A stretch of DNA of 64,000 bases, taken from the NCBI GenBank assembly GCA_031701365.1, contig GCA_031701365.1_4118.1; one strand, 5' to 3'. The position numbers and the translations under genes are program-made. Shown here piece by piece: positions 28,387 to 28,743 of this stretch. This DNA is from Escherichia coli (GTDB lineage Bacteria; Pseudomonadota; Gammaproteobacteria; Enterobacterales; Enterobacteriaceae). The notes under the pieces were generated by a model. It was not told the DNA's origin, searched no databases, and saw only the letters and a list, made by a program, of their open reading frames with translations. Position 1 is the first letter of the stretch. Every line of letters starts with the position of its first letter.

Positions 28387-28743
28387 ATGGGAATACAACA
28401 TATCACGCGTACTACTGACAATGGCGAGATCACTGGCTATCAAGTACAGGGCAAAGTAGCACAATTGCAGTACTGGTTTGTTAAACGTGGAATCATTGCA
28501 CCGGATCTTGATTATGACCGTGTAGCGTTTATTGATTCTCTTTATGTTGATCCTGATAGTCGGGGCAATGGTGAAGGTAACGAATTAATGAATGCCTTTA
28601 TTGATGCCGCCGATGATTCAGATTGTATCATTTTAGAATGCGATACGGGAGAAGATAACGCCTTTAATCTTAAAGAATGGTACGAAGGTTTCGGATTCGA
28701 GGTACTGATCGATAGTGAATATCCTATCATGATTTTATCATAG
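28387..28743 (+). CDS. GNAT-family N-acetyltransferase-like protein
   Basis: 118 aa; motif A-like IDSLYVDPDSRGNGEGNELMNAFIDAA and motif B-like NAFNLKEWYEGFGFE. Confidence 0.6.
   Translation: MGIQHITRTTDNGEITGYQVQGKVAQLQYWFVKRGIIAPDLDYDRVAFIDSLYVDPDSRGNGEGNELMNAFIDAADDSDCIILECDTGEDNAFNLKEWYEGFGFEVLIDSEYPIMILS

Follow-up and report, generated by a model that had tools for sequence, protein, structure and literature searches.

The stretch of DNA analysed here (64,000 nucleotides, nt; hereafter the window) comes from an Asteriusvirus, a jumbo coliphage of the PBECO4/121Q type. The gene under study, at positions 28387-28743, codes for a protein of 118 amino acids (aa) that is a member of the GNAT superfamily of acetyltransferases, as judged from hidden Markov model (HMM) matches, the presence of motif A and the predicted fold. 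The protein is a native mini-GNAT and very probably an active acetyltransferase, and its gene is an independent, horizontally exchanged single-gene accessory cassette that does not form a fixed module with the adjacent genes. That the cassette is an early accessory gene is likely, while we regard it as an evenly balanced proposition that the product is an early, dispensable effector of the jumbo phage, which would acetylate a host protein on a basic surface.

The region shares 90-97% DNA identity with the Asteriusvirus jumbo coliphages (~350-385 kb; PBECO4, 121Q, SP27 and fEgEco12). A tblastn search recovered the 118-aa protein from 25 phage records, 18 of which hold a 100% identical copy, and many GenBank records label the orthologues as 'acetyltransferase', 'GNAT family N-acetyltransferase' or 'PaiA acetyltransferase'. 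An identical protein already carrying that label, the GNAT call is public, and the observation is correct but ordinary; the gene call as such adds nothing new. What is added here are the mini-GNAT form, the AcrVA5-like structure, the placement as an early cassette of the terminal repeat and the natural presence/absence variants. In the records and papers found on Asteriusvirus phages, no function, target or expression of this gene is reported. GNATs across jumbo phages have been noted earlier and were predicted to modify host proteins such as RNA polymerase (Iyer et al. 2021, PMC7824862). It should be noted that in the record of Escherichia phage CMSTMSU (MH494197.1, 120963-121313) tblastn finds the gene broken into three pieces, and the protein listed for it is an 'UNVERIFIED_ORG' entry of 80 aa; this is probably a sequencing or assembly error, not a real pseudogene.

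Reading frame, family and predicted fold

Concerning the extent of the open reading frame (ORF), the TAA triplet at 28369-28371 is in frame and precedes the ATG by 15 nt, so that no longer 5' end or N-terminus is possible. The Nei-Gojobori ratio of nonsynonymous to synonymous substitution rates (dN/dS) is 0.07 against the orthologue of phage 121Q and 0.14 against that of Shigella phage SF1-1, and the plus-strand frame is therefore a constrained coding frame under purifying selection. Two antisense ORFs lie opposite the gene and have no PHROG match, and no Rfam family was found between 24 and 33 kb of the window; hence, an antisense gene or an RNA element at this locus was rejected. A split or truncated pseudogene was rejected as well, given the upstream in-frame stop, the low dN/dS and the short length of the protein across its family (see below). 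The same stop and the family-wide short length establish the mini form as native.

Three Pfam models score above their cut-offs, i.e. Acetyltransf_1 (PF00583; E = 4.1e-9, 37.2 bits, cut-off 20.7), Acetyltransf_7 (PF13508; 33.5 bits, cut-off 27) and Acetyltransf_10 (PF13673; 26.3 bits, cut-off 23.6), and the PHROG matches, 1249 and 3810, are both annotated as 'acetyltransferase'. A word-index homologue search gave only 2 clusters, and the family became visible only by an exhaustive HMMER scan, which yielded 290 relatives at E <= 1e-3, mostly of 117-160 aa (median 135) and aligned to the query end to end. An alignment of 101 of these was used for the conservation figures, the family profile and the AlphaFold model. 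Searched against solved structures, the single sequence finds weak matches to GNATs and the profile of the 101 relatives matches 80 solved GNAT chains at E <= 0.01. A preliminary description of this DNA had read the gene as a GNAT-type acetyltransferase, a reading that sequence, profile and predicted fold all bear out, with matches far too strong to be due to chance.

Both motif strings on which that description relied are present in the translation, IDSLYVDPDSRGNGEGNELMNAFIDAA as residues 49-75 and NAFNLKEWYEGFGFE as residues 91-105. In the former, R59-G-N-G62-E-G64 follows strand beta4, fits the motif A core Q/R-x-x-G-x-G/A and aligns with the Q-R-Q-G-L-G loop of RimI; R59 and G62 are conserved in 97% and G64 in 100% of the relatives. 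The assignment of motif B was right for the helix, for Y99 and for G103-F104 and approximate in its register, the beta5-alpha4 loop of the family carrying a 3-residue insertion relative to RimI (hhalign). The E84-F104 segment, which includes E84, D86 (95% conserved), E89 (87%), N91, F93 (91%), L95 (93%), W98 (98%), Y99 (99%) and G103-F104 (98% for F104), spans the motif B region, and further conserved family positions are L83 (95%), N/Q91, P113 and M115.

AlphaFold run on the single sequence gave an unusable model (predicted local distance difference test, pLDDT, 47.6), and the alignment-based model was used in its place (pLDDT 94.6, predicted template modelling score 0.86). This model predicts strands 3-10 and 13-21, helix 25-33, strand 45-54, helix 63-74, strand 80-84, helix 95-100 and strands 105-108 and 114-117, where everything from strand 45-54 on corresponds to the canonical beta4-alpha3-beta5-alpha4-beta6-beta7 GNAT core. 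Ahead of this core the protein departs from the canonical form, with a predicted beta-hairpin (3-21) followed by one helix (25-33), and shows family-specific features such as a G-S-x-E-G17-Y18 turn and an N29-W30-L31 motif. The PF00583 match covers only profile positions 53-116 of 116, i.e. the C-terminal half, and from this coverage and from the model a canonical beta1-alpha1-alpha2 N-terminal arm is not recognisable by sequence. The missing arm does not exclude GNAT membership, because AcrVA5 (PDB 6iuf), a 92-aa anti-CRISPR mini-GNAT that acetylates Cas12a and is accepted as an active GNAT, does not have a complete arm either.

A Foldseek search of the model against the PDB returned GNATs only, led by N-terminal acetyltransferases, RimI and Ard1, with AcrVA5 as the third-best match among solved structures; in BFVD, GNATs of 100-130 aa are common in viruses. 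The protein is extremely acidic, with an isoelectric point (pI) of 4.05 and a net charge of -16, close to the family median (pI 4.3) and equal in pI to AcrVA5 (4.05). Such strong acidity is consistent with a substrate that presents a basic protein surface and speaks against nucleic acid.

Promoter, cassette borders and gene exchange

The gene is served by a perfect sigma-70 consensus promoter of its own, 30 nt upstream of the ATG (Table 1). Perfect TTGACA/TATAAT sites with 16-nt spacing occur nine times in the window against 0.06 expected, and eight of the nine lie on the plus strand within 7.7 kb (26624-34339), each ahead of a single small gene. Arrays of small genes with their own promoters inside a long terminal repeat are known from the pre-early genes of T5 and the host-takeover module of SPO1. 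In phage vB_Ec-M-J the orthologue (12670-13026) is located inside the annotated 21,525-bp direct terminal repeat, and in fEgEco12 (11800-12156) inside one of 20,993 bp, which restriction mapping has confirmed (PMC13070987). The gene had been placed 'among the early genes' in the preliminary description, and this stands by inference only: the dedicated perfect promoter, the terminal-repeat location of the orthologues and the layout shared with T5 and SPO1 together make early expression a reasonable conclusion.

Table 1. Coordinates (in the window) of the acetyltransferase gene, its signals, its motif codons and its upstream neighbour.
Feature	Position	Strand	Basis
DksA/TraR-type C4 zinc-finger protein, upstream neighbour (context, not a demonstrated partner)	28066..28323	+	PF01258 E = 5.4e-11, PHROG 54
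Perfect sigma-70 consensus promoter TTGACA-16-TATAAT, spacer with AGTACT, dedicated to the GNAT gene	28330..28357	+	12/12 match
417-bp presence/absence cassette: GNAT gene with the 3' portion of its promoter, reaching to the following promoter's spacer	28342..28758	.	pairwise alignment with PBECO4
Shine-Dalgarno GAGGA, 8 nt before the ATG	28374..28378	+	read from sequence; kept in 121Q and SF1-1
Mini-GNAT acetyltransferase coding sequence, 118 aa, ATG start, stop codon included	28387..28743	+	ORF listing
Motif A codons, R59-G-N-G62-E-G64, putative beta4-alpha3 pyrophosphate-binding loop for acetyl-CoA	28561..28578	+	conservation, RimI alignment
Motif B codons, E84-F104: end of strand beta5, acidic loop, helix alpha4	28636..28701	+	conservation, hhalign

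The cassette nature of the gene is seen in the alignment with PBECO4, where nearly identical flanks enclose a clean 417-bp gap, the GNAT gene is absent and a hybrid promoter, TTGACAGTACTATCCAGTAGTGTTATAGT, remains, which looks functional. One breakpoint is in the spacer of the GNAT promoter and the other in the spacer of the promoter of the following gene, which suggests that genes are shuffled when the repeated early promoters recombine with one another. A similar arrangement is that of the promoter-early stem-loop cassettes of T4-type phages. Overall, the gene is present in 23 of the 41 related records. Shigella phage SF1-1, a 146-kb phage, has a copy at 5001-5357 that is 95% identical in DNA (17 differences in 357 nt) and sits between Phapecoctavirus-like flanks that are unrelated to Asteriusvirus; the two sequences are homologous from the -10 box to TAGTACT, directly behind the stop codon. 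This copy is a recent transfer between unrelated coliphage lineages. A more distant homologue, 47% identical, is encoded by Klebsiella phage 05F01 (Stephanstirmvirinae).

The preliminary description had also proposed that the GNAT, a kinase and a TraR-like protein form a functionally linked early module, and here the data point elsewhere. The TraR-like neighbour is real (Table 1). The kinase, which we take, from the label of its fEgEco12 orthologue, to be the plus-strand ORF at 32032-32673, has no Pfam match at E <= 0.01 and falls in PHROG 4301, of unknown function, and no kinase was recognised by Pfam among the ten larger ORFs of the early region. A fixed module is not supported, because PBECO4 keeps the DksA-like gene without the GNAT and the SF1-1 copy has entirely different neighbours: the GNAT is an independent cassette and the kinase is unsupported. 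A conserved partner gene of the GNAT was sought and none was found, and a search for related loci with a 6-sequence alignment gave 12 viral loci with no common neighbourhood. As a side observation, the fEgEco12 orthologue of the 32032-32673 ORF is annotated in public records as 'serine/threonine-protein kinase PRP4', which looks unsupported.

Proposed function and rival explanations

In the mechanism that we propose, host RNA polymerase would probably transcribe the gene from its own sigma-70 promoter immediately after DNA entry. The beta4-alpha3 loop (R59, G62, G64) of the product would bind acetyl-CoA, and catalysis of the acetyl transfer would fall to Y99 on alpha4 and an acidic side chain from the beta5 region (E84, D86 or E89). 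The receiving amino group, that of a lysine or of an N-terminus, would lie on a basic surface of a host protein, which would be neutralised, disabled or redirected to the presumed benefit of the phage, in a mode of action similar to that of the mini-GNAT anti-CRISPR AcrVA5 and, more loosely, to that of the phage protein Rac. That the substrate is a host protein has, in our estimate, about the same chance of being right as of being wrong.

Relatives of the protein occur in conflict-type gene contexts. A 48%-identical homologue found on hundreds of metagenomic contigs (P0152) lies near genes for an ArdA anti-restriction protein, a CcdA antitoxin and a Panacea-domain antitoxin, and its surroundings also hold HNH nuclease and AAA ATPase genes. 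These contigs gave no megablast match in the phage collection and only distant hits in the plasmid collection, and their context appears phage-like by gene content only. In another relative (P0017) the GNAT domain, residues 41-156, is fused with PARP/ADP-ribosyltransferase and ParB_N domains in one polypeptide, and the gene is flanked by two ART-PolyVal genes on a contig with a terminase. Other fusions join this GNAT domain to DUF5661 or to Amidoligase_2, and solo versions exist too.

Several points weigh against the proposed host-protein effector. Genomic context is not conserved between phages, so that guilt by association is weak, and 18 of the 41 relatives do without the gene, so that any contribution it makes can only be conditional. 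Which residues act in catalysis is uncertain, because E84, the candidate base, is only 39% conserved in the family; D86 or E89 may take its place as the catalytic acidic residue. The sequence relation to AcrVA5 (hhalign probability 88%, E = 3.2e-6, over the C-terminal 65 columns only) is weaker than that to RimI (96.5%) and no better than that to generic GNATs, and membership of the Rac family was rejected (hhalign probability 3.7%, BLASTP E > 5). To our knowledge E. coli has no Cas12a, and the target must therefore differ from that of AcrVA5. Finally, the nearest solved structures, 1y9w and 2g3a, are without known substrate and the best profile match is an aminoglycoside acetyltransferase, which together keep a small-molecule substrate in play.

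On the latter explanation, the enzyme would act on a small cationic compound (a polyamine, an aminoglycoside-like compound or an amino-sugar) and would adjust host metabolism or detoxify. We hold this to be unlikely, though not negligibly so, since the NCBIfam resistance-enzyme equivalogs all score far below their cut-offs and were rejected (e.g. AAC(6') group E, 18.8 bits vs 140) and an alpha1-alpha2 arm, which in its canonical form usually shapes the small-molecule pockets of GNATs, is not recognisable by sequence. Moreover, relatives are fused to protein-modifying ART domains in polyvalent proteins, and the polyvalent-protein GNAT family that they resemble in architecture has been placed in the protein-modifying RimI-like clade (PMC5512222). 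Substrates in the translation apparatus or among the early proteins of the phage itself, e.g. N-terminal acetylation of a ribosomal protein as done by RimI, are improbable, yet they account for RimI scoring highest of the profiles compared pairwise (probability 96.5%, E = 9e-10), for the dominance of Naa60, Naa30, Naa50 and Ard1 in the Foldseek list and for rimI (TIGR01575) as top NCBIfam match; ribosome-directed GNATs have also been suggested in some jumbo phages (Iyer et al. 2021, PMC7824862). Against them, the rimI model reaches 20.5 bits, far below its equivalog cut-off of 86.4, so that RimI itself was rejected as an identity and the protein is RimI-like in its core only; the N-terminal half that forms the peptide-binding groove in RimI/Naa enzymes is not recognisable by sequence, and the matches may reflect only the generic GNAT core.

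The extreme acidity and small size of the protein, shared with many anti-restriction and anti-CRISPR proteins, would also suit a function in binding instead of catalysis, as an acidic decoy or inhibitor that would stoichiometrically block a DNA-binding or defence protein of the host and would use the GNAT fold as a scaffold; one study reports that AcrVA5 also inhibits Cas1-Cas2 integration through direct interaction with Cas2 (PMC11021501). Without cofactor binding or catalysis, though, the 97-100% conservation of R59, G62, G64 and the alpha4 Tyr among the 101 relatives is hard to explain, and we consider pure binding quite improbable. Still further down stands a toxin of the TacT/AtaT/ItaT type, which would acetylate aminoacyl-tRNA and shut off host translation. 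Host shut-off is a plausible early function and AtaT (6ajm) does appear at rank 18 of the Foldseek list. The TacT and AtaT toxins have about 170-175 aa and basic tRNA-binding surfaces, and a protein with the charge given above is ill-suited to tRNA binding; furthermore, no toxin family was found in Pfam, NCBIfam or PADLOC scans and the phage itself needs translation, which makes this explanation highly improbable.

Returning to the host-protein effector, a more specific form of it is an AcrVA5-type counter-defence enzyme with a different target, made in the first minutes of infection. In this form, which we offer tentatively and do not expect to be the right one, a critical lysine would be acetylated on the surface by which an immune or nucleoid protein of E. 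coli binds nucleic acid, with type I CRISPR, restriction or another defence effector as candidates. Being a promoter-flanked cassette, a counter-defence GNAT would be expected to spread between unrelated coliphages wherever that defence is met. Among the PADLOC defence-system models, no family matched the protein at E <= 0.01.

Whichever substrate applies, the GNAT offers a clean experimental handle: it is tiny, well modelled, strongly conserved and probably in the earliest expression class of a 350-kb phage, and the sister phages naturally include carriers of the gene (121Q, fEgEco12) and a phage without it (PBECO4). In structure the protein is similar to the only anti-CRISPR known to be an acetylating enzyme. 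The substrate, once found, would provide another example of E. coli phages using acetylation to take over the host or to evade its immunity, and would also give a function to a family of about 290 relatives that includes injected polyvalent-protein domains.

Wider context and comparison with known systems

The palindrome AGTACT (the ScaI site), one copy of which lies within the GNAT promoter spacer, outnumbers every other hexamer of the window, with 253 copies against 19 +/- 4 expected from dinucleotide shuffles (~13-fold excess), and looks more unusual than the GNAT gene. Copies lie, for example, at 28335, 28469, 28742 and 28773. The hexamer is often extended to CAGTACTG, and its density is 8.2 per kb in non-coding vs 2.9 per kb in coding DNA, where it occurs in all three frames. 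Many copies sit in promoter spacers and right after stop codons. In most of the perfect promoters of the 26624-34339 array the spacer ends in AGTACTG directly before TATAAT, and this common end could serve as an operator through which the early promoters are shut off. Palindromic hexamers are usually avoided by phages; because the excess runs against this habit, it suggests that AGTACT is a binding or modification site for a phage protein. No paper was found that deals with AGTACT in connection with jumbo phages. Two blocks of ~4 kb (36000-40400 and 44000-48000) have no AGTACT at all, in surroundings with 3-6 sites per kb; the first starts near the inner end of the terminal repeat of the sister phages, as placed by coordinate offset, and both may be of different origin or regulation.

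Other features of the region concern hairpins and ORFs. GC-rich hairpins accompany the early promoters. One of them, GGGGAAACGTCTTCCCC, lies at 28787-28803, downstream of the promoter and ahead of the ribosome-binding site of the gene that follows the GNAT, and its stem is kept while its loop varies in 121Q and SF1-1. Two further GC-rich hairpins with 12-bp stems (26049-26076 and 30092-30119) have a TTGACT -35-like box in the 5' arm, followed by TATTAT. The plus-strand ORF at 29038-29361, a small early gene, gives a weak DUF7247 match (E = 2.6e-7). The one at 26268-26609 (plus strand, 113 aa), likewise a small early gene, has a weak match in PHROG 18238 and a still weaker one in a PHROG that bears the label 'DNA ligase'; its orthologue in vB_Ec-M-J is annotated as 'DNA ligase', for which 113 aa are far too short. 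Upstream of the early region, on the minus strand (787-11661), ten consecutive ORFs of 358-433 aa look like tandem copies and may form a paralogous family at the opposite end of the genome.

Among named systems, the closest are the orthologues in the sister phages, i.e. gp295 of 121Q ('acetyltransferase', AIT14185.1), g031 of fEgEco12 ('GNAT family N-acetyltransferase') and EcMJ_030 of vB_Ec-M-J. All are the same gene at 95-100% protein identity, are also placed after the DksA-like gene within a direct terminal repeat of ~21 kb, and show no substantive difference from the gene of the window. A more remote comparison is with the first GNAT family of polyvalent proteins, described as one that 'typically has the ART domain as a neighbor', with solo members and a place in a RimI-like protein-modifying clade (Iyer et al. 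2017, PMC5512222). The ART-fused relative described above and the solo versions fit this description, an identity that would follow from architecture only. The protein of the window differs in being the product of a solo, promoter-driven gene, whereas the polyvalent-protein GNATs are part of a virion-delivered polyprotein.

The ribosomal protein S18 N-alpha-acetyltransferase RimI (PDB 5isv, 2cnm) aligns over motif A, and hhalign places E84 on RimI E103 and Y99 on RimI Y115, with the E. coli RimI sequence checked against PDB 5isv. Vetting et al. reportedly identified, in 2008, E103 as the general base and Y115 as the general acid. RimI has 148 aa as compared with 118, and its beta1-alpha1-alpha2 part is without sequence counterpart here. 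As for Rac (gp28 of LUZ19, a GNAT of a phiKMV-like phage), its acetyl-CoA pocket is needed for its host-takeover effect, and it has been used as a functional analogy for jumbo-phage GNATs (Iyer et al. 2021, PMC7824862). Rac is longer (157 aa) and is encoded downstream of the phage RNA polymerase gene, beside structural genes rather than among early genes of a terminal repeat.

The best analogy in mechanism is AcrVA5, which is likewise a minimal GNAT of the same acidity and whose whole chain is a close structural match to the predicted model. The protein of the window has in addition a helix and a loop (residues ~25-44, with the conserved N29-W30) between the N-terminal hairpin and strand beta4. 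Phage homologues of AcrVA5 that are recognisable by structure only inhibit Cas12a in a manner dependent on the acetyl-CoA site (PMC10799925), and by analogy the protein described here may work like AcrVA5 without being a member of its family.

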